In this document: in pieces, positions 1,111 through 41,483 of the stretch
How positions within the stretch are numbered: the stretch's first letter is position 1
Layout: the number at the start of each line of letters is the position of its first letter
From: a virus
Lineage: Duplodnaviria > Heunggongvirae > Uroviricota > Caudoviricetes
DNA length: 41,483 bases
Direction: 5' to 3' (one strand)
IMG/VR virus record: IMGVR_UViG_2565956725_000003
Coordinates: 1-41,483 of that record
The notes under the pieces: model-generated
What the model saw: the letters and a program-made list of their open reading frames with translations, nothing else
What the model was told of the DNA's origin: nothing
Database searches by the model: none
Program-made: the position numbers and the translations under genes

Positions 1111-1142
1111 AAAAACCCTCTGTAGTAACAGAGGGTTTTGTT
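1111..1142. terminator. bidirectional rho-independent terminator
   Basis: AAAAA-CCCTCTGT-AGTA-ACAGAGGG-TTTTGTT: 8-bp GC-rich stem flanked by an A-tract and a T-tract, lying between the convergent 532..1071 gene and the guaA-like remnant. Confidence 0.75.
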
Positions 1143-1164
1143 CATTCATAGTGCAGGGTTCAAA

Positions 1165-1179
1165 TCATTCCCACTCAAT
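1165..1179 (-). other. putative att core: guaA 3'-end-like remnant marking the left prophage junction
   Basis: Minus strand reads ATTGAGTGGGAATGA (IEWE-stop), the conserved GMP synthase C-terminus, and the frame is broken by a stop just upstream. Flanked by inverted repeat CACTCAATT (1172-1180) / AATTGAGTG (1200-1208). Confidence 0.45.
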
Positions 1180-1289
1180 TATTTACGGATACCATAACCA
1201 ATTGAGTGATAACATTTTTCCAAAGATGAATTTTTCTCGTACCGTTTTATATACCGTCACCGGAAATCAGTACCATGAAAAATGCCATG

Positions 1290-1772
1290 CTATCTGGTCA
1301 GGGTGTCGTACTGTTTTTCGCAGACTCTTCCGGCTTCGGCTGCCCGGTCAGCATACTCTGCCAGTTGTCTATTTCTCTCGAGAGATTTGCTGAACACGTC
1401 GGCAAGCAAAACTCCGGTGTCTGCGGCTGACGACCCAGCGCCGACAATGGCGTTATAGTGCCTGAGCTGCTCACGGATGGCAACGAGCTGTTGCTGCAAC
1501 CGGCCAGCGCGAGCGGCAGCATCAAGAGCATCATTGCGCGCCTGGTCGATCCTCTGCTGCGCTTCACGTTCATTGATCGATTTCTCCTGTTCGTAGTGCT
1601 GACGAATTCTCTCATCTTCGGTTTTGCGGTCTTCTTTCGCCTGTGCATACCCAGCGTCGTACTGACGACTGCCGTGCACATTCCAGGCAACAACTCCTGA
1701 TATGACCAGAACAGCAAGCACCGCCATGATAATCAACTGTTTACGGTATGCTTTTACGAATGACCAGATCAT
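1290..1772 (-). CDS. i-spanin (Rz-like)
   Basis: 160 aa with N-terminal TM helix then Q/R/E-rich coiled coil; last gene of the lysis cassette, start overlaps the endolysin stop. Confidence 0.8.
1298..1534 (-). CDS. o-spanin (Rz1-like lipoprotein) embedded in Rz in the +1 frame
   Basis: Internal ATG-ATG start gives [13 protein letters not shown] (lipobox LAGC) followed by a Ser/Pro-rich mature peptide, entirely inside the Rz ORF. Confidence 0.65.
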   Translation of the reverse strand: MMLLMLPLALAGCSNSSLPSVSSSGTITPLSALGRQPQTPEFCLPTCSANLSREIDNWQSMLTGQPKPEESAKNSTTP

Positions 1773-2398
1773 ACAGCCAGCACCTTACTGGCAGTGACGT
1801 ACCGCGCGCGCCGGTCGTCGATGCCATTCCTGCCACCATTGATAATCAGAGTTACACGTGCAATATCGCCGGTATACTTCATGCAACCTTTGCTGGAGAA
1901 GAACCACGCCGCGCTACGAGCCGCGTATTCGTCCTGCGCCAACAGTTCAGGATTCTCCAGCAGGTCCACTTTCAGGCCGTTTCCGCAATCACGATAGTTA
2001 TTCAAACCGGTAATCTGGATAAGTCCGCGGCCACGGTAATTCCAGCCATCGCCGGGGGCATTGTTCCCCATGCGTTTGCTGTACACCAGATTGGCAATCG
2101 CTCGCTGGCGCTCGAGTGGCAATGGTGGTTCACCAGCATGGCGACCCAGTGCATTAGCCTGCCCCTGAGTGAGACGCCCAGCCCGAACGAAGTTAGCCAG
2201 TCCGCTGACACTGTAGTTGAAATTCTCCTGCAACCTGGTGAAGCCCCCAGACTCATGCCCGACTTGAGCAATAAACATTGCCTGATCTTCTGCTTTGCTG
2301 ATACCAAACTCTTTCATCGCAGAAGTTATATGCGAGAACCAGCGTGCGGCCAGCGCCTCGCTAATACCAGCAGCTCGCTGGAATTGTTTAATCTCCAT
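1769..2398 (-). CDS. endolysin, glycoside hydrolase family 19
   Basis: Start MEIKQFQ with RBS GAGGT; motifs VGHESGGF and [16 protein letters not shown] typical of GH19 lysozymes. The ORF-track start at 2629 is rejected because it runs through the holin gene. Confidence 0.8.
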
Positions 2399-2696
2399 GT
2401 TTAGACCTCGATATTTTGAAAATCTGAACAACGTTACCGCGTGTTTTAATAACCGCGGCAAGCATGACAGCGTTGATAATGACCTCAGATAAATCCACAG
2501 CCATTGGCGTGCGTAACCAGATTGCATAGACGACACGAACAGGAATACTGGCCGCAGCAACAATAAGGAAATAAGCAAGCCACCCTCCCCATCTTCGATG
2601 TTGAGAGCCGTTACGCCGGAATGTGACAACGCGAATTGCTATGCCAGTACAAATAACTGCATTGGTGATAAGCAAAAAAAACTCATGCGTTACCAT
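2388..2696 (-). CDS. putative holin
   Basis: 102 aa with about three TM segments and a charged C-terminus (KISRSKHGD); RBS GGGGAG; immediately upstream of and overlapping the endolysin start. Confidence 0.55.
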
Positions 2697-3096
2697 CGTC
2701 TTTTCTCCCCGGAATTAAATCGCGTGGATTGTCTGAACGGTGGTAGAGCCATATACCAATACGCACAGCGACAATTGCTGACACGAATGCGCCAGCAGAG
2801 AAAACAATCCCTTTTTCAAAAGAGTCCTGCGTGATGGTAGGGATCAGGCTGGCTATGCCGATAAGAATTGATGCTGCTGGTTTGTAGAAAAGAAGTCCAC
2901 AGAGAAAGCTAAGCATCGATAAGAGTACGCGACGATGAATTGGGTACTCTACCGCAGAGGTAACAAAAATTACCGCACCAGCAAGAGCACCGAGCGCCAC
3001 CTCTGGCGGAACGCCTACGATAACTGCAGCAAGAGAGCTCACACTAAGCCATTGATTTAAAGAATCAGTAGTTAGATGGGCTGACATAATGAACAC
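2683..3096 (-). CDS. small multi-pass membrane protein (second holin/antiholin or other)
   Basis: 137 aa with three to four hydrophobic helices, between tailspike and holin; start ambiguous (GTG at 3096 or ATG at 3087), weak RBS. Confidence 0.4.
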   Translation of the reverse strand: MFIMSAHLTTDSLNQWLSVSSLAAVIVGVPPEVALGALAGAVIFVTSAVEYPIHRRVLLSMLSFLCGLLFYKPAASILIGIASLIPTITQDSFEKGIVFSAGAFVSAIVAVRIGIWLYHRSDNPRDLIPGRKDDGNA

Positions 3097-3316: not shown

Positions 3317-6073
3317 TTAGCTACTTTCAAGCATTGCAAGACGTGATTCTATTTTTTCGATTCTTCTACGCAAATAAGCTGACTCAAGCCATAAACACTG
3401 GTCAGTACGGATACCCCACCTATTTCCAGCCTTGCAAACCAGAGTTCGCTCTTCTGTTTCGTATTCTTCTTCCATCTCAATTTCGACGCCATCCACAACT
3501 TTAGTGATCATCCTTACCGCCATCACTGGCGCGTATTTATCATCCCATTCATCGTAACAGAGAAGGCCAAATCTGGTTCCATCAATCCCATGCGCGAGGA
3601 AAGTGTCTCTCACTTGTTGTGCTATAACACCAAAATGCCAGCGGGCACCATCTCCCTTTTCCCTGACGGCATCAAGCCAGCGAAAAGCTACAATCCTGAT
3701 ATCTCCCCATGCATCCAGAATTGCATCACCTTCATAACCACGAGACATATACAAGCTGAGCTCACTTGTACTAATCGGTTCACTTTTTTCTCTACCATCT
3801 GATGTGTTTATCGAACCGTTCGCAGAATAAACCTGTGCCCATCTAAATGATGGTGCACCAAGAGATTTGCTGTTATCAATAATTGGTGAAAAATTACCTT
3901 TAATGGCAATATTTCCAGAGTCGCCGAATATATTAATAACTGCAGAGTCATCACCATGGTTTTTTACGCTTAAGTTTCTTGATGAAATATTTATATCTTT
4001 GTTATATCCACTAACATTAATCCATCTTTTACCATCAATGTGATACCCGTAAATATTTCCGTCTGATTGTTCGTCAGGTGACTCTCTAAGAACAATAGCA
4101 TCTGCTCCAGACGACCATTGTATTTTTGTATCTGTAGGCCTCCAGTTCTTTATAATGAACGAACCATCAGTAAACTCCGTTTTTATTTGTCTATTGTCTA
4201 CAAATGCGTCTCTTGGTTTAAACTCACTTGTGTTAACGCTGCTCTGAAGATCAGAAGCAAAAAATCTAAGATTTCCTGTATAACCCTGAGTCTCGGTCTG
4301 GTTATACGCAATCATAATTCCATTTTCAAACTCAGATGATGTTATTTTAACATCACGGCAATCACCAAAAATGCAATTTCCTTTATCAAATGTTGTTTGA
4401 GCTTTGAATTTATCAAACCTTAAATTACGAACAGGGAAACCATCAACCTCTAATGCAAAGGATGCAGGAAGGCCAAAGTATTCTGATGGCTTACCTGATG
4501 TATGATCAAGAGTAGTGGCTACTGTATTCTCAAAAACAGTCCCGCTAAAATTATTACCAATTGACGGAAACCTGATTACACTTATTGTACCTTGTATTTC
4601 AGGAGAAATACCAGATAGTGTGATGTTAGCTCCATCAAATGATGCATCTGAATACGTATATACTGATTCACTGCCAGCAATTTTAAACTGTTTAACTGAA
4701 GTTATTCTCATCGACTTTTTATGTTTAAATGTCACTGAGCTTTCAGTATTACTTACAAGATCAATCTGAGGGCTATTCCTTATCGCGATCCCTGACTGGA
4801 CATAAACGTTATTAAAGTGCGTTTTTTCAGGATTTCCCTTCATTGAAAGGCTCCCGTCATTTTCTGTCAGTAGTAGTCCTTTTACCCTCCAATAGCCGAC
4901 AATCTGTACGTTATCAATAACTGAATCACAGCTATCGTATACATGCAACCCTATATCCCAGTCATCACCCAATGAATAAGAATCAGGGTTATTGTATCCT
5001 TCAATACCATTTTTACTTACCATTATTCTCAGGTTGCGTAACTGTGATGCCCTGTTGATACTAACAGCTACGCTCATGGCTTTTGGTGTAGCAGGAGTAA
5101 CACCTACAGAATCTTCATTTGTAAACTCAGTGAACTTACAAGATATCCCTTCAACAATTTTAACTGGTCTTTCATTAGAGATGTTAAAAAAATATTTGTT
5201 TTTTTCTCCATCACCAGTAAATACAAGATGGGTTCCTTTACTCCAACTTTTTAATAATCTTTCAGGCGCTGGTCTATATGTATCCCAATAATCAATGCCA
5301 TCACCAATTAAAGACACTCCAGGAGGCACATCTATGTTCTTAGAAATCATCCATTTACCTGCAGGTATTCTAACGACACTTGCACCAGAATTTATCGCAT
5401 TAATTAACCATTCAGACGCATCAACTTCAAAATTTAATGCAGCATATCTTTGCTCAAACGGAACAAAATCAAGAGCGTTAACGTTATCCCGCATCTTATC
5501 CTGGAACGTTCGGTATACTGCTCCAGAACCATACTGAATAAACCAACCAAAACCACCAACAACTCCGGCGATTGCAGCATCAACATAATTGCGCATTGAT
5601 CGATTATTTACAGCATCCTGCTCAAGTGATGGATCTGCAAGGTTAGAAATTTTGTTTTGCTTTGCATCGTAATATTTTGCAAGCAAAGATGGTTTCATCA
5701 ATGCACGTCTGAACCATCCAAAACATTGCTGGATCAGCATCGTCAGATAGTCAAAGGCATCTTCATGCACCTCGGGGAAAAATTTTCCCTGATTACGAAG
5801 ATCAGTCTCCTGCACCACATCAAGCACACGATCTATCGTAATTCGCCATCCAGCAGCAAGCGGCGACGGAAGAACAACAGAACCGCCACTATAAGTGCCC
5901 GCCCCTGTTACCGTATAACCGGTATCCAGAACCAATTCTGTTACGTTCCCGTTCAGGTCAGACACCTGAACAACCAGGTCGGATTTTTTGAAAATACGGA
6001 AGGTATACGGAAATGATGTCGTAGCTCCGTTACCTGTGTATTCGTTGTGGTCAACTTCGGTTGAGACCGTCAT
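3317..6073 (-). CDS. tailspike/tail fibre with C-terminal intramolecular chaperone (peptidase S74-like)
   Basis: 918 aa; N-terminus resembles the T7 gp17-type adaptor domain; AT-rich central part; C-terminal roughly 150 aa resembles self-cleaving chaperone domains of endosialidase-type fibres; RBS GGAG. Confidence 0.8.
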   Translation of the reverse strand: MTVSTEVDHNEYTGNGATTSFPYTFRIFKKSDLVVQVSDLNGNVTELVLDTGYTVTGAGTYSGGSVVLPSPLAAGWRITIDRVLDVVQETDLRNQGKFFPEVHEDAFDYLTMLIQQCFGWFRRALMKPSLLAKYYDAKQNKISNLADPSLEQDAVNNRSMRNYVDAAIAGVVGGFGWFIQYGSGAVYRTFQDKMRDNVNALDFVPFEQRYAALNFEVDASEWLINAINSGASVVRIPAGKWMISKNIDVPPGVSLIGDGIDYWDTYRPAPERLLKSWSKGTHLVFTGDGEKNKYFFNISNERPVKIVEGISCKFTEFTNEDSVGVTPATPKAMSVAVSINRASQLRNLRIMVSKNGIEGYNNPDSYSLGDDWDIGLHVYDSCDSVIDNVQIVGYWRVKGLLLTENDGSLSMKGNPEKTHFNNVYVQSGIAIRNSPQIDLVSNTESSVTFKHKKSMRITSVKQFKIAGSESVYTYSDASFDGANITLSGISPEIQGTISVIRFPSIGNNFSGTVFENTVATTLDHTSGKPSEYFGLPASFALEVDGFPVRNLRFDKFKAQTTFDKGNCIFGDCRDVKITSSEFENGIMIAYNQTETQGYTGNLRFFASDLQSSVNTSEFKPRDAFVDNRQIKTEFTDGSFIIKNWRPTDTKIQWSSGADAIVLRESPDEQSDGNIYGYHIDGKRWINVSGYNKDINISSRNLSVKNHGDDSAVINIFGDSGNIAIKGNFSPIIDNSKSLGAPSFRWAQVYSANGSINTSDGREKSEPISTSELSLYMSRGYEGDAILDAWGDIRIVAFRWLDAVREKGDGARWHFGVIAQQVRDTFLAHGIDGTRFGLLCYDEWDDKYAPVMAVRMITKVVDGVEIEMEEEYETEERTLVCKAGNRWGIRTDQCLWLESAYLRRRIEKIESRLAMLESS

Positions 6074-6176
6074 GTTAAATCTCCAGATAGTCGCAGCACC
6101 CGTTGCGCCGCATATCTGGTTATTCTATTACCTGAAAAACCACATATGGATAGAAAGACTGTAAATACGAATAGAT

Positions 6177-6193
6177 ATTACCTTTCGGGTAAT
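6177..6193. promoter_or_regulatory. operator-like 17-bp palindrome ATTACC-N5-GGTAAT (copy 1)
   Basis: ATTACCTTTCGGGTAAT, perfect 6+6 inverted repeat, in the divergent region between the tailspike start and the SOS-box ORF. Confidence 0.6.
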
Positions 6194-6229
6194 TTGCAAA
6201 ACGTGCTGGATAGCAAACAAATTATTTGA

Positions 6230-6249
6230 TACTGTATAAATATACAGTT
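6230..6249 (+). promoter_or_regulatory. LexA (SOS) box inside a sigma70-like promoter
   Basis: TACTGTATAAATATACAGTT matches the CTGT-N8-ACAG consensus; sits between TTGATA (6226-6231) and TATTAC (6249-6254), 20 nt upstream of the ORF at 6269. Confidence 0.8.
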
Positions 6250-6268
6250 ATTACATGGAGAAGATAAG

Positions 6269-6526
6269 ATGCAGCAGTATCACTATCCACTGGAAGACGG
6301 ATTTACCGAAAGGATTCACACGCCGGGAGGCGTCAGGTCACTGGTGGAGGGATCGCACTTGATGAAATTACTCCGGGATCTCGATAAGGATGGATTTAAT
6401 GTCGATGGCCCACTTGCCGAACTGACTGCACTGATTAACTACGTCACCAGCTCACAGATGTCTATGCAGGATCTGCAAACACATCTCGACTATTGTGCCG
6501 AACAATTACGAAAGCAAACCAGATAA
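6269..6526 (+). CDS. small SOS-controlled protein, paralogue of the Bro protein C-terminal domain (candidate antirepressor)
   Basis: 85 aa, RBS GGAG; aligns with the last ~65 aa of the 6840..7532 product (shared IH-P-GV, LM-LL, DG-V-G, AELT, QTH-Y). Confidence 0.7.
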   Translation: MQQYHYPLEDGFTERIHTPGGVRSLVEGSHLMKLLRDLDKDGFNVDGPLAELTALINYVTSSQMSMQDLQTHLDYCAEQLRKQTR

Positions 6527-6556
6527 GGTTTGCAATTACCAAGTGGAGTGCTTATA

Positions 6557-6573
6557 TTTACCTTTGCGGTAAA
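6557..6573. promoter_or_regulatory. operator-like palindrome (copy 2) nested in a larger inverted repeat
   Basis: TTTACCTTTGCGGTAAA, flanked symmetrically by GGAGTGC (6545-6551) and GCACTCC (6582-6588). Confidence 0.55.
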
Positions 6574-6665
6574 TTTACATCGCACTCCTCTTGTGCCATA
6601 GTAATCGGGCACTGGCAAAATCCAGTGCCGGGATTGGTCTCCCGGATTACTACAGAGGCACATAT

Positions 6666-6686
6666 GCCGCATAAGCGGTTTTTTTA
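6666..6686 (+). terminator. weak terminator-like hairpin plus T-tract
   Basis: CCGC-ATAA-GCGG followed by TTTTTTT; short stem. Confidence 0.3.
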
Positions 6687-6839
6687 TGTGTAAAGCGCAC
6701 CTATTCTATGGTGGGCTGTGTGGGGGCACCGAAAGGTGCGCCGGGTTCCTTTGTAGCCGGTAAGACCAACTCTGCACAGTTCACCACCATCTGATTGGTC
6801 TCAGCGGTGGTGATTAACCTAACTACAAAGGTGATCGCC

Positions 6840-7532
6840 ATGAATACCAAACCTTCCATCTTTTCCTTTGAGTCATCCTGCCAGATCCGTATGTTCATGA
6901 TTGACGGAGAACCTTGGTTTGTCACCAAAGATGTGTGCAATGCTTTGAATATTGATGTTACACAAGCGAGAAAACTTGATAAAAAAGGCTGGAACAAAAA
7001 GGGGCTGTATTCAATACAGACCCCTGGTGGAATACAAGAACTATCCATCGTTTCAGAATCAGGTCTCTACATCCTTATTCTGCGTTGCAAAGAGGCAATG
7101 ACAGAGGGAACGAGAGCATTCAGATTTCTTGAATGGGTTACAGGTGAGGTTCTTCCTCAGATCCGCCGCACCGGAAGTTACATTAAAAACTCGCTCCCGC
7201 AGGAAGAACGCATAAAGATGGTTGCCGACCAGGTAGCCAACGCCACGGCGTCAGCAGTAATGCAGGCGATGAAGATAGAGAACAAAACCTACAGTGCCCC
7301 GCTGAAGCCCGGCTACCGCAGCCTGATTCACTCGCCGTCTGGTGTTCTCGGCCTGACGGAGAACTCACTGCTGATGAATCTGCTGAACCAGTTACAGGAA
7401 GACGGGCACGACGTATCGGGCGCGGCGGCGGAACTGACCACCATGTTCTGCTACATCGTCGGTGTGAGTAAATGCCTGCGTGATATCCAGACCCACGCGG
7501 AATACATCAACGACAAGGCAGGGGTCTTCTGA
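6840..7532 (+). CDS. Bro-N domain protein (antirepressor-like)
   Basis: N-terminal Bro-N signature (FSFESSCQIRMFMIDGEPWFVTKDVCNALNI ... GLYILILRC ... FLEWVTGEVLPQIRRTGSY); start at ATG 6840 with RBS AAAGGTGA. Confidence 0.85.
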   Translation: MNTKPSIFSFESSCQIRMFMIDGEPWFVTKDVCNALNIDVTQARKLDKKGWNKKGLYSIQTPGGIQELSIVSESGLYILILRCKEAMTEGTRAFRFLEWVTGEVLPQIRRTGSYIKNSLPQEERIKMVADQVANATASAVMQAMKIENKTYSAPLKPGYRSLIHSPSGVLGLTENSLLMNLLNQLQEDGHDVSGAAAELTTMFCYIVGVSKCLRDIQTHAEYINDKAGVF

Positions 7533-7541
7533 CAGAACGGC

Positions 7542-7568
7542 GGCACAGGGATGTGCCTTTAAATAATT
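7542..7568 (+). terminator. terminator-like hairpin after the Bro gene
   Basis: GGCACA-GGGA-TGTGCC followed by TTTAAATAATT. Confidence 0.4.
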
Positions 7569-7597
7569 CTGTACAGATTGCAGGTGAATAGCGTACT

Positions 7598-7614
7598 ATT
7601 ACCCCAAAGGTAAG
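7598..7614. promoter_or_regulatory. operator-like palindrome (copy 3)
   Basis: ATTACCCCAAAGGTAAG upstream of the two-gene cassette; further GTAAC-N13-GTTACC half-sites at 7626-7650. Confidence 0.55.
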
Positions 7615-7730
7615 AAAGTTGATTTGTAACATTTTAGTTTGTAGTTACCGTGATGGTTTTGCTGCAGAAAGTTAACTAGTCAAAATCACACCGTATGTAA
7701 GTCACGTCTGTTCCCGTATGGGAGGATGAT

Positions 7731-7949
7731 ATGTTTAAATTTGATATGCAACTCAACCAAAACTATGCCTCTTTTTACCATCCAGAAACTGGTAAAGCTG
7801 TTTTCGTTGACTCTTTCGATAATGAAGAATTTGATATCAGAATTGGGACCCTACGCCAAAGTAAGCATGTTGCTACTGTACGTGCATCCAATGATGATGA
7901 ATTAAATCAAAAAATAAGTGAGGCGACCTCCCGTTATCTATGTCTATAA
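7731..7949 (+). CDS. hypothetical protein, first gene of an AT-rich two-gene cassette
   Basis: 72 aa; strong RBS GGGAGGA; no recognisable domain. Confidence 0.6.
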   Translation: MFKFDMQLNQNYASFYHPETGKAVFVDSFDNEEFDIRIGTLRQSKHVATVRASNDDELNQKISEATSRYLCL

Positions 7950-8317
7950 CAGAACAACAACTCATTGATCTTGAGGATGAGATTAACGAGATCTTGCAAG
8001 AAGATGCGGCAAGAATTCACTTTTCATTTCACGCAGCATATGAACGCCTGAACGACGAGAGGAACAAACCGCCAATTACTCTTGCTGAGCTTGAAGATGT
8101 GTTTAAATCGTTTATATCTGCACATCTGCAGACTGTTTTGGATTTTGCTGAAGGTACAACTTTCACCATAAAGTGCAACAAAAGCGCCCTTCATTTTCCT
8201 TGCGCCATTGTACACGAAAGAGAGTTTGGGAAAACGTGGGTTATCCAAAACGTCATTACAGCCATGAGGAAAGTGGGATTCAAGTCTAAAGATTCTATTA
8301 TCCTCGAAGTTAATTAA
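7940..8317 (+). CDS. hypothetical acidic protein, second gene of the cassette
   Basis: 125 aa; start overlaps the upstream stop by 10 nt; followed by a terminator; no recognisable domain. Confidence 0.6.
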   Translation: MSITEQQLIDLEDEINEILQEDAARIHFSFHAAYERLNDERNKPPITLAELEDVFKSFISAHLQTVLDFAEGTTFTIKCNKSALHFPCAIVHEREFGKTWVIQNVITAMRKVGFKSKDSIILEVN

Positions 8318-8339
8318 GCCCGCACTGAGGGCTTTTTTA
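8317..8339 (+). terminator. rho-independent terminator
   Basis: AGCCC-GCACTGA-GGGCT followed by TTTTTT directly after the 125-aa gene stop. Confidence 0.7.
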
Positions 8340-8410
8340 TGGACGAAACAAAAGTCAGTGCTACACTCATTGACGCCACATTGAGGTGGCTTATAGATGG
8401 AAATTTCACA

Positions 8411-8572
8411 ATGAAAAAAGCATTTGCTGCACTGTTCGTTTTGTTGTCTCTGGTAGCTTCAACTCAGGCCTTTGCCGGTCGTTGTCAGCACGACAGCGAC
8501 ACTGCTGCTGACGGCTCCCGCTGCGGTGGGCGTTCTGCGGATTCCCGCCCGGGTGGCGGTGGCATTCGTTAA
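8411..8572 (+). CDS. small secreted Gly-rich two-cysteine peptide
   Basis: 53 aa from internal ATG: signal peptide MKKAFAALFVLLSLVASTQAFA then a 31-aa mature peptide with two Cys. ATG at 8339 rejected (abuts terminator, no RBS). Confidence 0.45.
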   Translation: MKKAFAALFVLLSLVASTQAFAGRCQHDSDTAADGSRCGGRSADSRPGGGGIR

Positions 8573-8594
8573 AAACAAGGCCGCGAAAGCGGCC
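8571..8594 (-). terminator. terminator for the minus-strand late operon, possibly bidirectional
   Basis: GGCCGC-GAAA-GCGGCC hairpin; on the minus strand it is followed by TTGTTTTT. Confidence 0.6.
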
Positions 8595-8603
8595 TGTGAC
8601 ATG

Positions 8604-8984
8604 TCACGCAACGCAATTATTACCGCGCCATGTAACATTTTTAATAATCTTATCAGCACCAAACTCAACGTAAACAGAGCAACTGAAATGGAGTGTATAA
8701 CCGCCATCAGTTGTTGCGTATGTGTTTGAATATATAGTATTACCAATTAGATTAGACGTAGTATTATACGTTGTGGTTTGTGGTACGTTATAACTACCAG
8801 AGCTTGAGTAAACATACACTCTGTTTCCATCTGGAGATGTAAGCTCTCCCTGAGGATACCCCCACTGCTGAACCATTGCGTCTATACTCTGCCCGCGCCA
8901 CGTAAGCATATTTCTTTCAAACTGTGCAGCTGACTGGCATCCAACGAGAAGCATAAATCCAAAAATCAAAAATACTTTTCTCAT
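8604..8984 (-). CDS. prophage lipoprotein (moron, possible superinfection exclusion)
   Basis: 126 aa from ATG 8984 with RBS AGGGG; signal peptide MRKVFLIFGFMLLVGC (lipobox LVGC); Thr/Asn/Tyr-rich mature part. Confidence 0.6.
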   Translation of the reverse strand: MRKVFLIFGFMLLVGCQSAAQFERNMLTWRGQSIDAMVQQWGYPQGELTSPDGNRVYVYSSSGSYNVPQTTTYNTTSNLIGNTIYSNTYATTDGGYTLHFSCSVYVEFGADKIIKNVTWRGNNCVA

Positions 8985-9069
8985 AATTACCCCTATCATG
9001 GAAAAACAGCACCAATCCACAAATTAACTAGTTATTTTATTATTCTTCCGAACAATACAATTCCGAATA

Positions 9070-9192
9070 CTACAAAGCCGAACCATGCCGCTGCACGCAA
9101 CAGAGATTCCAATTGAAACCCATTTTTATCAAAATGTATGAATAGCATAAAAACGCTGCACATATTAGTACAATAAAAGTTATTTGAACCAT
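9070..9192 (-). CDS. small single-pass membrane peptide (not in ORF track)
   Basis: 41-42 aa MMVQITFIVLICAAFLCYSYILIKMGFNWNLCCVQRHGSAL; strong RBS AAGGAG 5 nt upstream; immediately after the stop of the 824-aa gene. Confidence 0.45.
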   Translation of the reverse strand: MVQITFIVLICAAFLCYSYILIKMGFNWNLCCVQRHGSAL

Positions 9193-9203
9193 CATATCTC
9201 CTT

Positions 9204-25609: not shown

Positions 25610-25686
25610 GTGGCATTAGCTCAGTTGGACAGAGCAACCGCCTTCTAAGCGGTTGGTCGCAGGTTCGAATCCTGCATGCCACGCCA
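25610..25686 (+). tRNA. tRNA-Arg (anticodon UCU), phage-encoded argU-like
   Basis: Hand-folded cloverleaf with 7-bp acceptor stem, D and T arms, anticodon loop CTTCTAA, discriminator G and encoded CCA; core resembles argU. Confidence 0.9.
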
Positions 25687-38737: not shown

Positions 38738-38986
38738 ATGAAAGGTGCATTAGGTAAGAAGGAACTCCTGGCGGTGGTGCCACTGTCATGGAGCACTATC
38801 GACCGTATGGAGCGCGCAGGGGAATTTCCTAAACGCTGGTATATCACTGACAAACGCTGCGCATGGAACCGTGACGAAGTTGAGCGTTGGCTTGATGAAC
38901 GTCAGGCAGCAAGCCCGGCAGAGTTCCAGGGTAAAAAGCCTCCTGTTCAGCAACGTGTATATCGTCCTGTGAGCAACGCTGCATGA
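38738..38986 (+). CDS. AlpA-family HTH protein (candidate excisionase)
   Basis: 82 aa; pattern LLAVVPLSWSTIDRMERAGEFPKR...RCAWNRDEVERWLDER resembles AlpA/TorI-type factors. Confidence 0.5.
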   Translation: MKGALGKKELLAVVPLSWSTIDRMERAGEFPKRWYITDKRCAWNRDEVERWLDERQAASPAEFQGKKPPVQQRVYRPVSNAA

Positions 38987-39095: not shown

Positions 39096-39395
39096 GTGAG
39101 AAAGTTAAGCCGACTTGAAAAATATCACATGAACAAGGTTTCAATGCGCAGCCCTTCAAAGGTTGTTGCCGTTACTCCTGCGGCGATAGAGATCGAAAAA
39201 CGCGCGATTGAAAGAGAGAAAAAAGGGCAGTTCCGCATTGCCGCCCACCTTTGGCTTCAGTGTATGGATGTTGCTTCTGGTGATGTTGAACGTGCAAGGA
39301 TCGCGGTTCGCAGGGACCAATGTATCACAAAAGGTAACGGCCTTCGCCGTGGCGACTATAGCGGCATAGGATGTTGTGGGGTGGTTTATGACTAA
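39096..39395 (+). CDS. hypothetical small regulator-like protein
   Basis: 99 aa from GTG 39096; start uncertain; overlaps the methyltransferase start. Confidence 0.35.
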   Translation: MRKLSRLEKYHMNKVSMRSPSKVVAVTPAAIEIEKRAIEREKKGQFRIAAHLWLQCMDVASGDVERARIAVRRDQCITKGNGLRRGDYSGIGCCGVVYD

Positions 39396-40038
39396 GAAAT
39401 ACACACTAATCTATGCAGATCCCCCCTGGGCATACCGGGACAAAACCACAGATGGTAATCGCGGTGCCGGTTTTAAATATCCGGTTATGAGTGTGCTGGA
39501 TATCTGCCGCCTTCCTGTGTGGGATTTGGCCGGTGAAAACTGTCTGTTGGCCATGTAGTGGGTGCCAACACAACCACTCGAAGCACTAAAAGTTGTTGAA
39601 GCCTGGGGATTCCGTCTGATGACCATGAAGGGCTTCACGTGGATAAAATGTGGTAGTCGACAACCAGATAAACTGGTTATGGGGATGGGACACATGACTC
39701 GCGCCAACAGTGAAGATTGCCTGTTTGCGGTAAAGGGAAAACTACCTCCGCGCATTAATGCAGGTATCGTTCAGTCATTTACCGCACCGCGGCTTGAGCA
39801 TTCAAGAAAACCAGATGTCGTTCGTGAAAAACTTGTGCAATTGTTAGGCGATGTTTCTCGCATTGAACTGTTCGCCCGCCAGTCGTCTCATGGCTTCGAT
39901 GTTTGGGGTAATCAGTGCGAAGACCCGGCAGTACAACTACACCCAGGATACGCGTTGGATATTGGCGGATTAACAAATGCATTCAGCAATGCTCCGCTGT
40001 CACCAACAGACAACCAGGGGCGGGAGCGTGCAGCATGA
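39388..40038 (+). pseudogene. MT-A70-type DNA adenine methyltransferase interrupted by an in-frame amber codon
   Basis: ATG 39388 gives MTKKYTLIYADPPWAY (DPPW motif); in-frame TAG at 39556-39558; the same frame continues WVPTQPLEAL...EHSRKP to 40038. Confidence 0.65.
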
Positions 40039-40232: not shown

Positions 40233-41483
40233 TTATTCCCCCGCCATCCACTTCTCAAACTTCGACGGGGAGAACGGAATCAGATCCGTATGCTCCCCGT
40301 TAATCCAGGAATCAATCATATCGGCCCACTGCTGCAACATGTAGGCGCGCTGTCTGGCGTATTCCGCTTTGTTATATACGGCGCGCACACCTTTCTGCTC
40401 ATGTGCCAGAGCCTTTTCAATCCAGTCTGAAGGATAACCAGCCTCATGCAACAACGTACTGGCTGTACGGCGCATATCGTGTACGGTGAAGCCCTGAATA
40501 TGCTCACCATCTTCATTTATTATTTTCACCGTTCTGTCGATCAGAGAGTTCAGCGCGGCATTAGATAATGGCTTCCGGAAATTGTAACGCCCAGGAACAA
40601 GATATTCACTTCCACCAGCGCACATCTGCAACCCAACCAATATATCCTGTGCCTGTTTAGGCAGGTAAATAACGTGCGCCCGGCTTCCCTTCATGCGGTC
40701 TGAAGGAATTGTCCATGTCCATTTTTTAAAATCTATTTCATCCCACGTTGCATTGGTGAATTCGCCTTTACGAACCATAGTGATAAGCACCAGCTTTAAA
40801 GCCATTTTCATAGTGCCCATAGCACCAATGGCATCCAGCGTGCGGAAGAACAGGCCAATTTCTTCTGGTGTCAGTGTTCGCTCTCGTGGTTTAAATATGG
40901 CGATAGACGAAGGTTTAATGTCAGCCGCAGGATTAAACAAACCATGACCACGGTCATTGGCGTGACGGTATACGCTGCTGATGATCTCCCTGGCCTGTAC
41001 TGCTGTTGCCCGACCACCGCGTTCGACAATCCGGTCACACAAATCACGAACCATCGATGTGGTAATTTCAGCCATCATTTTGTTGCCAAGAACCGGAAGT
41101 ATGTCACGGTCGATCACCGCCTGCTTCATTGCGCGGGTACTGTCAGCCAGGATGACGTGTTTCATATAACTGTCGGTATGTACCGCAAACGTCTCGGCAC
41201 CACGAATCTTTTTGATACCGTCACGTTTAGCCGCAGCCGGCGACTGGCCTGCTTTAAGCAGCTTCTTTGCAGCAATCAGTTCTTCTCGCGCTTCTGCCAG
41301 GCTGATACCGTCACGCCCATACTGCCCGATTACCAGTGTTTCGCGGCGACCGTTGATACGGTAGTCATAGCGAAACGAGACCGTGCCTGACGTAAGCACA
41401 GCTACATACAGCCCGTCACGATCGGAGACCTTATACAGTTTGTCCTGCGGCTTGAGGTTTTTTAATTTTGTATCGGTAAGCAC
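40233..41483 (-). CDS. int: tyrosine integrase (P4/CP4-57-like), 5' end at window edge
   Basis: 416 aa; arm-binding N-terminus LTDTKLKNLKPQDKLYKVSDRDGLYVAV; C-terminal catalytic region with HDMRRT and RAVYNKAEY; first codon at the edge is GTG so the true start may lie just outside. Confidence 0.9.
   Translation of the reverse strand: MLTDTKLKNLKPQDKLYKVSDRDGLYVAVLTSGTVSFRYDYRINGRRETLVIGQYGRDGISLAEAREELIAAKKLLKAGQSPAAAKRDGIKKIRGAETFAVHTDSYMKHVILADSTRAMKQAVIDRDILPVLGNKMMAEITTSMVRDLCDRIVERGGRATAVQAREIISSVYRHANDRGHGLFNPAADIKPSSIAIFKPRERTLTPEEIGLFFRTLDAIGAMGTMKMALKLVLITMVRKGEFTNATWDEIDFKKWTWTIPSDRMKGSRAHVIYLPKQAQDILVGLQMCAGGSEYLVPGRYNFRKPLSNAALNSLIDRTVKIINEDGEHIQGFTVHDMRRTASTLLHEAGYPSDWIEKALAHEQKGVRAVYNKAEYARQRAYMLQQWADMIDSWINGEHTDLIPFSPSKFEKWMAGE

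Follow-up and report, generated by a model that had tools for sequence, protein, structure and literature searches.

The window analysed here, a single stretch of DNA of 41,483 nucleotides, begins in the chromosome of Escherichia coli and passes, at positions 1163-1179, into a prophage of the phiV10/epsilon15 type that is inserted in the last codons of guaA. We give this reading a probability of about 0.97. The junction is the integrase-distal attachment (att) junction of a phiV10-like Uetakevirus prophage, and it sets the boundary of the prophage to the base, with phage DNA beginning between 1163 and 1180. Integration site, core and integrase family have all been published before, and the junction presents no new biology. 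An earlier note on this DNA had recognised the left junction of a prophage inserted in the 3′ end of guaA; that reading is borne out by alignment with K-12 and with lysogens, and by the phage attachment site (attP) that can be rebuilt from the two junctions.

The attachment core and its two junctions

The DNA to the left of the core belongs to the host. Two plus-strand genes lie there: yfgH (1-516), a lipoprotein gene that is annotated at the same relative position in K-12 and has glycine-zipper matches in Pfam; and yfgI (532-1071), which belongs to DUF5384 (Pfam E = 4e-62) and is annotated both in K-12 and in the lysogens. In K-12, guaA is encoded on the opposite strand to yfgH and yfgI and converges on yfgI, the two genes being 92 bp apart and associated with the same hairpin as in the window. 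Positions 1-1162 of the window align to K-12 with 1137 matches over 1165 columns, and the 150 bp immediately to the left of the core with 140 matches over 151 columns. The yfgI-guaA region of K-12, the prophage-free relative with which the earlier note had proposed a comparison, continues to match up to 1179 and has the same guaA end. At 1180 the similarity ceases, and the 150 bp to the right give only 89 matches over 169 columns.

The attachment core itself is the 17-bp sequence AATCATTCCCACTCAAT (reverse complement ATTGAGTGGGAATGATT) at 1163-1179, its limits being those of the identity between attB and both junctions. It comprises the last four codons of guaA (IEWE), the stop codon and two further bases. 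On the minus strand, 1179 to 1165 reads ATTGAGTGGGAATGA, that is, ATT GAG TGG GAA followed by TGA. This had been recognised beforehand as the C-terminus of GMP synthase, and the terminal bases of K-12 guaA are identical to it, the GuaA protein ending in ...PPATIEWE*. The core had likewise been located correctly at the outset, although its length was put at 15 nt rather than 17 bp. The codons in frame are ...CCG TAA ATA ATT GAG TGG GAA TGA; because a TAA stands two codons before the ATT, the window holds only a stump of guaA, as the earlier note had maintained. ATTGAGTGGGAATGA occurs as a single copy in the window, even when two mismatches are allowed (expected 0.12). The stump at 1165-1179 is the displaced original end of guaA; what would otherwise be an orphan IEWE-stop is explained as a displaced native end, for which the label of pseudogene is inappropriate.

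Several comparisons fix the core independently of the reading frame. When the window junction, K-12 attB and the right junction of the E. coli lysogen Combat2C1 are aligned together, host and phage sequence change places exactly at the 17-bp identity. The core of the window is the exact reverse complement of the published attP/attB core, attgagtgggaatgatt, and the deposited record of phiv142-3 starts with the first base of the core. The attP bases corresponding to 1164-1186 are invariant in all eight phage attP sites compared.

The core may contain the site of strand exchange in the form of a 7-bp overlap, CCCACTC (1170-1176), which is suggested by an imperfect dyad around it. The inverted half-sites on its two sides, TTAATCATT in attP (the counterpart in the window is CAAATCATT at 1161-1169) and AATTATTTA at 1177-1185, agree at 7/9 positions. 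The proposed arrangement, TTAATCATT-CCCACTC-AATTATTTA, is in keeping with three things: (i) the invariance of 1164-1186; (ii) the canonical geometry of the dyad; and (iii) the octamer GAGTGGGA in the guaA 3′ end, at which the island GIsul2 inserts and recombines (PMC9376610) and which, at window positions 1169-1176, lies over the same bases.

Between yfgI and the core are a predicted bidirectional intrinsic terminator of yfgI and guaA (1110-1142, both strands) and the native 3′ trailer of guaA (1143-1162, minus strand), the latter matching K-12 except for one extra T. The hairpin is made up of an A-run (1110-1115), an 8-bp GC-rich stem formed by CCCTCTGT (1116-1123) and ACAGAGGG (1128-1135), an AGTA loop (1124-1127) and TTTT (1136-1139), with the T-run reading T4GTT; the stem reaches 12 bp (1112-1123/1128-1139) when A/T pairs are included. 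Its RNA fold is predicted at -22.8 kcal/mol on the plus strand (z = -8.3) and at -18.2 kcal/mol on the minus strand (z = -5.3), none of 200 shuffles being equally stable, and both stem and loop are identical in prophage-free K-12. A structure of this shape would be expected to act as a terminator. A consensus terminator scanner applied to 900-1500 gave no match, an artefact of its rule that arises because A/T pairing carries the stem on into the T-run, and Rfam and tRNA scans revealed no structured RNA at the junction. The hairpin shared with a convergent host gene had been described in the earlier note as well; this description stands, except that the guaA stop codon is separated from the extended stem by 25 nt, and from the GC stem by 29 nt, rather than by 23 nt. 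In the lysogen, the minus-strand face of the terminator is downstream of the phage genes Rz/Rz1 instead of guaA.

The second core lies beyond the edge of the window, and the right junction was seen in very close relatives. In Combat2C1 and IHE3034, which are near-identical lysogens, a second core occurs 190 bp past the equivalent of the window end, where it is fused to guaA. The gene is of full length there (1578 bp), and its product departs from K-12 GuaA at a single residue and not in its C-terminus; this is the intact guaA that had been anticipated beyond the right edge. The right junction of Combat2C1 is the mirror image of the one in the window, with phage DNA to the left of the core and guaA to the right (144/150 matches to K-12). 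Neither observation that would have told against the earlier note, a different end of host guaA or the lack of a matching core at the right prophage end, was made in K-12 and in these lysogens, respectively. The left junction of the window is 100% identical in three genomes, including Combat2C1, and the best match to the integrase region among E. coli genomes is 99.8%. In one genome with a left junction of 100% identity, the prophage appears to be about 570 bp shorter.

When both arms are joined over one core, the resulting attP (606 nt) is matched as a single piece, at 100% coverage, by 21 phage records, all of them of the genus Uetakevirus where a taxonomy is given. Identity is 98.3% for EC.W1-9, 97.2% for vB_EcoP_ZX5, 96.7% for phiV10, 88.3% for SPN1S and 87.6% for epsilon15. 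Occupation of the site is common: of 5426 complete E. coli genomes, 363 have the left junction and 568 the right one, so that about 7-10% of such genomes carry an element here, and the 17-mer can serve as a quick delimiter for these prophages.

The phage arm and its inverted repeat

The phage attachment arm on the lysis-gene side extends from the core to the stop codon of Rz (1180-1289); in phiV10, ZX5, epsilon15 and other phages, it adjoins the integrase-side arm without interruption. Within it, the 24-bp block TACCGTTTTATATACCGTCACCGG (1240-1263, plus strand) is unchanged in eight phages. The block includes a predicted arm-type integrase site, ATACCGTCAC (1251-1260), as well as a partial copy, TACCGT (1240-1245). 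This 10-mer is present in four copies in the window, where 0.02 would be expected; the other three are inside the integrase gene, at 40962-40971 (minus strand), 41215-41224 (plus strand) and 41305-41314 (plus strand). The copies at 1251, 41215 and 41305 are counterparts of integrase sites annotated in the GenBank record of epsilon15. Two direct repeats around the core, D1 and D4, have two copies each with 75-83% identity and were treated as chance.

Next to the core, and partly within it, is a 9-bp inverted repeat formed by CACTCAATT (1172-1180) and AATTGAGTG (1200-1208). The repeat is exact and extends to 17-nt arms (1172-1188/1192-1208) with 14/17 matches. When the local 200 bp were shuffled, an inverted 9-bp repeat of this kind arose in 3% of trials, and one touching a 17-bp target in 1%. 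In our best reading, the repeat consists of the heads of two IHF-like sites of opposite orientation. The imperfect palindrome spanning 1172-1208 contains ACTCAATTATTTA (1173-1185, plus strand) at core position +10 and ACTCAATTGGTTA (1207-1195, minus strand) at core position +32, each with one mismatch to the IHF consensus WATCAANNNNTTR, and a third, overlapping match is found at 1211-1199 on the minus strand. Matches to the consensus at +10 and +32 from the start of the core are present in 8/8 phages, and the repeat decays. The core arm never changes; in the outer arm, epsilon15 has three mismatches and SPN1S, PAT1, BUCT554 and BUCT711 have one each, only ATTGA (1201-1205) being invariant in the eight phages. 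What is constant on each side is TCAAT-N3-TTAY, and these are the positions of the IHF consensus. The epsilon15 record has IHF annotated at both places, the annotations being database predictions.

Two other explanations of the repeat have to be weighed. The earlier note, which had the repeat itself right, took it for a pair of core-type integrase binding sites flanking the point of strand exchange. In tyrosine recombinases such as those of lambda and the P4 family, strand exchange takes place in an overlap of 6-8 bp common to both partners. The exactness of the repeat over 9 bp, its extension, the location of one arm inside the core and a chance frequency of about 1-3% in shuffles would all suit such a pair; however, the spacing of the arms is 19 bp (3 bp in the extended form) and not 6-8 bp, and the centre of symmetry is at about 1190, 11 bp beyond the end of the identity at 1179, where the sequence of attB is unrelated (AATGGTAGCTGGCGG...) and an exchange would meet heterology. 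In addition, the outer arm is not conserved across phages with the same core, and the few bases of it that are kept are those of the IHF consensus. The role of a core-binding pair was rejected on these grounds and is very improbable. A better case, if one that we still doubt, can be made for a dimeric protein other than IHF, candidates being an AlpA-family excisionase and the integrase itself as an accessory contact, that would bind the dyad TCAAT-N3-TTAY ... RTAA-N3-ATTGA (1175-1205). The symmetry of the dyad is kept in position in the eight phages, two full IHF footprints 22 bp apart would clash, so that joint occupancy may fail, and the IHF assignments consist of one-mismatch consensus matches together with database predictions. 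Yet both halves fit WATCAANNNNTTR where it matters, even after the palindrome has decayed (as in epsilon15, ATTCAATAAGTTA), and a precedent exists in lambda, whose IHF site H′ immediately adjoins the core. Two opposed IHF-like sites remain the reading that the pattern of conservation suggests.

The prophage and the fate of guaA

The first phage genes inside the junction are those of an Rz-like spanin (DUF2514; 1290-1772, minus strand; Pfam E = 1e-40) and of the Rz1 lipoprotein embedded in it (1298-1573, minus strand). Rz/Rz1 are annotated at the same offset from the core in the records of phiV10 and epsilon15. The remainder of the lysis cassette (1769-3096, minus strand; Pfam Glyco_hydro_19, Phage_holin_3_7 and Phage_holin_8) consists of a family 19 endolysin gene (1769-2398) and two holin-family genes (2388-2696 and 2683-3096), all on the minus strand. 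From Rz/Rz1 to the holins, these genes follow each other as they do in the phiV10 and epsilon15 annotations. At the opposite end of the window is the gene for a P4-type tyrosine integrase (40233-41483, minus strand; Pfam Arm-DNA-bind_3, Phage_int_M and Phage_integrase), the GTG start codon of which is formed by the last three bases of the window. The protein is identical to phiV10 Int at 414/416 positions (99.5%) and 88% identical to epsilon15 Int. A small DNA-binding protein of the AlpA family is encoded at 38738-38986 (plus strand; Pfam Phage_AlpA E = 3e-5), and its phiV10 homologue is annotated as AlpA family; the gene is a likely candidate for the excisionase, or directionality factor. Over positions 1180-26000 of the window, phiV10 and phiv142-3 cover only 81-83%, the variable part being likely to comprise the tailspike gene (3317-6073) and accessory genes at about 6.1-9.2 kb. 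In the methyltransferase gene, a TAG stands in frame at the position of a TGG in phiV10, and because of this nonsense mutation full functionality of the prophage cannot be assumed.

By analogy with its family, the P4-type integrase would have recombined the attP of the phage with chromosomal attB within the 17-bp identity. If lambda is taken as a guide, its N-terminal domain would bind the ATACCGTCAC arm sites, and its central and catalytic domains the half-sites of the core, with bends introduced by IHF in the arm bringing the arm-bound integrase to the core. Strand exchange would take place in a 6-8-bp overlap, probably CCCACTC (1170-1176), and the AlpA-family protein probably directs excision. 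Integration of this kind would place a second core some 40.5 kb away, where it closes the unchanged reading frame of guaA and is followed by a phage-borne trailer, a hairpin terminator and the integrase gene. Since the second core closes the frame, guaA would stay intact, as it is in Combat2C1 and IHE3034.

Two readings of the junction differ from that of a phage inserted at its attachment site and possibly able to leave it. One takes the IEWE-stop stump for a coincidental match, or for a fragment of guaA derived from an unrelated deletion or rearrangement. The stump is indeed short (15-17 nt), and 10 of 100 shuffles yielded at least one match to its sequence at two mismatches or fewer; however, it lies within more than 1.1 kb of collinear native DNA (yfgH-yfgI-terminator-trailer), its breakpoint and the published att core agree to the base, and the rebuilt attP exists in free phages. 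The alignments, the free-phage attP and the published core rule out such an origin, to which we assign next to no probability. The other reading, that the junction is a fossil in which a defective prophage no longer excises and the core is a scar, is unlikely, although it deserves more weight than a chance match. The TAG in the methyltransferase gene, a copy in IHE3034 that is annotated as frameshifted, and the many lineages that carry prophages at the guaA site are all in keeping with decay. In contrast, no mutation sets the core, the arm-type block or the IHF-like sites apart from those of free phages, the integrase reading frame is of full length and nearly identical to that of phiV10, the AlpA and lysis genes are intact, and the close relative ZX5 was induced spontaneously from a lysogen (PMC9782041).

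With regard to guaA, the coding replacement supplied by the phage is the core alone, i.e., four codons and a stop; it is the trailer and the terminator that change. The idea in the earlier note that the phage carries a replacement 3′ end therefore applies to the core but not to any longer coding segment. In the lysogens, a phage-borne hairpin is located 48 nt past the guaA stop codon, and its 8-bp stem, CCCTCTGT/ACAGAGGG, is the same as that of the native one. In a scan of such trailers in one genome per species, only Escherichia had the short native arrangement of 63-64 nt, counted from the ATT to the hairpin end. An 83-nt arrangement is present beside related integrases (83-90% identity) in Klebsiella, Kluyvera and Citrobacter werkmanii, and in Serratia, another Citrobacter, Buttiauxella and Pseudescherichia, where the flank retrieved contains none of these integrases, its length is 73-83 nt; for one further Citrobacter contig, the flank was too short to judge whether an integrase is present.

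It is possible, though we hold it only tentatively, that the phage arm behind guaA, which is outside the window, is a diverged enterobacterial guaA trailer that was captured from a host. The guaBA operon is strongly expressed. An implication of such a capture would be that the acquired terminator both ends the late operon of the phage and shields the integrase gene from guaBA read-through. Alternatively, past phage traffic may have homogenised the guaA terminators across genera. A search of 5426 E. coli genomes with a chimeric query gave no phage-type trailer without a prophage; in all 5426, the query found only the native attB, at 93.5% identity and with a gap of roughly 19 nt. A scar left by recombination between the host and phage hairpins was rejected for E. 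coli on this result.

Comparison with known systems

The closest counterparts of the junction are the Uetakevirus phages phiV10, epsilon15 and ZX5, which have an identical 17-bp core and the same distance of 190 bp between core and integrase. For ZX5, the core was reported as attgagtgggaatgatt, with the same attP given for phiV10 and epsilon15, and integration at the guaA site was shown by PCR and Sanger sequencing (PMC9782041). Both phiV10 and epsilon15 have the gene order int, arm, core, arm, Rz/Rz1, and the arm-type sites and terminator in the epsilon15 record match those described here. At the junction itself there is no difference; relative to phiV10, the prophage differs in its cargo and host-range modules and in the nonsense codon of the methyltransferase gene.

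The lambda system is similar in more general terms, having a tyrosine integrase with an arm-binding domain, arm-type repeats in both arms, a short identity core and IHF sites between the core and the arm sites, which in the window are predicted. Unlike the 15-bp intergenic core of lambda, however, the 17-bp core of the window is inside a coding gene. The integrase of the window also belongs to a different subgroup, the P4/IntSXT type (PMC8138268), and the candidate excisionase is of the AlpA type.

The same target is used by elements that are not phages. The cluster of integrases around that of epsilon15 targets the 3′ flank of guaA, and CMGI-3 and related integrases group with epsilon15 Int (PMC8138268). 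GIsul2, CMGI-3 and related islands share the guaA 3′ end as their target with the prophage described here, whereas they are islands with resistance or metal-tolerance cargo and have a shorter core (8 bp as reported).

Finally, insertion into the 3′ end of a coding sequence has a parallel in phage 21 and the element e14, which enter the coding 3′ end of icd and restore its frame with a substitute end. In both cases the phage restores the frame of the host gene, which stays functional. In icd, however, the substitute amounts to some 50 codons and includes differences, whereas at guaA the core is identical and the C-terminus of GuaA is unchanged.

Window edges and the guaA trailer

The window opens on the first base of the yfgH ATG (position 1) and closes precisely on the integrase GTG start codon (41483), so that the second att junction is missed by 190 bp. 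At 1158-1159, the host trailer carries one T more than that of K-12 (GGGTTCAAATC in the window versus GGGTCAAATC in K-12), which lengthens the stop-to-hairpin spacing from 28 to 29 nt; this spacing also has a 64-nt variant, seen in one Escherichia sp. genome.

There is also a hairpin in the phage arm behind guaA. In Combat2C1, an E. coli lysogen with a near-identical prophage, it is located at about 895-925 of the extracted locus (L002), roughly 120-150 bp past the point that corresponds to the right edge of the window, and its 8-bp stem is the same as the stem of the native E. coli yfgI/guaA terminator. The phage-type arrangement, with 73-83 nt from stop to hairpin, is present as well in genomes of Serratia, Citrobacter, Buttiauxella and Pseudescherichia, in whose fetched flanks no related integrase was found. 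Two origins can be considered for the phage-type trailer outside E. coli: it could be the native, ancestral trailer of these genomes, or it could be a scar left by elements since lost. Within E. coli, a scar-type trailer occurred in 0 of 5426 genomes.

Methyltransferase, tailspike and tRNA genes

The MT-A70 DNA methyltransferase gene (39388-40038, plus strand) is interrupted by an in-frame TAG at 39556-39558, where phiV10 has TGG (W57), and the ORF is thereby broken into pieces of 56 and 158 codons. The copy in the E. coli lysogen IHE3034 is frameshifted according to its annotation. Together, the two disruptions suggest that the methyltransferase gene has been inactivated repeatedly in lysogens.

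The related phages phiV10 and phiv142-3 cover just 81-83% of window positions 1180-26000. The part left uncovered probably lies in the region of the tailspike (3317-6073, minus strand; 918 aa, with a C-terminal Peptidase_S74 chaperone domain) and at about 6100-9200. Several small ORFs in these regions gave no Pfam match, including one that is lipoprotein-like (8604-9020). A phage-borne tRNA-Arg gene with anticodon TCT is found in mid-prophage (25610-25686, plus strand).

Parallels with known phage systems

The integrase coding sequence holds the arm-type motif ATACCGTCAC three more times without a mismatch, once on the minus strand (40962-40971) and twice on the plus strand (41215-41224 and 41305-41314), the most distant copy being some 700 bp away from the core. 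For two of these copies, the position is one annotated as integrase-binding in epsilon15. Sites at such a distance may serve recombination or, alternatively, autoregulation of int.

Finally, two RNAs identified through Rfam, isrK (6609-6685) and a C4 antisense RNA (6704-6791), are placed directly 5′ of an antirepressor-like ORF with a Bro-N domain (6795-7532), all on the plus strand. This order of RNAs and ORF resembles the RNA-controlled antirepressor module of the P1/P7 type.
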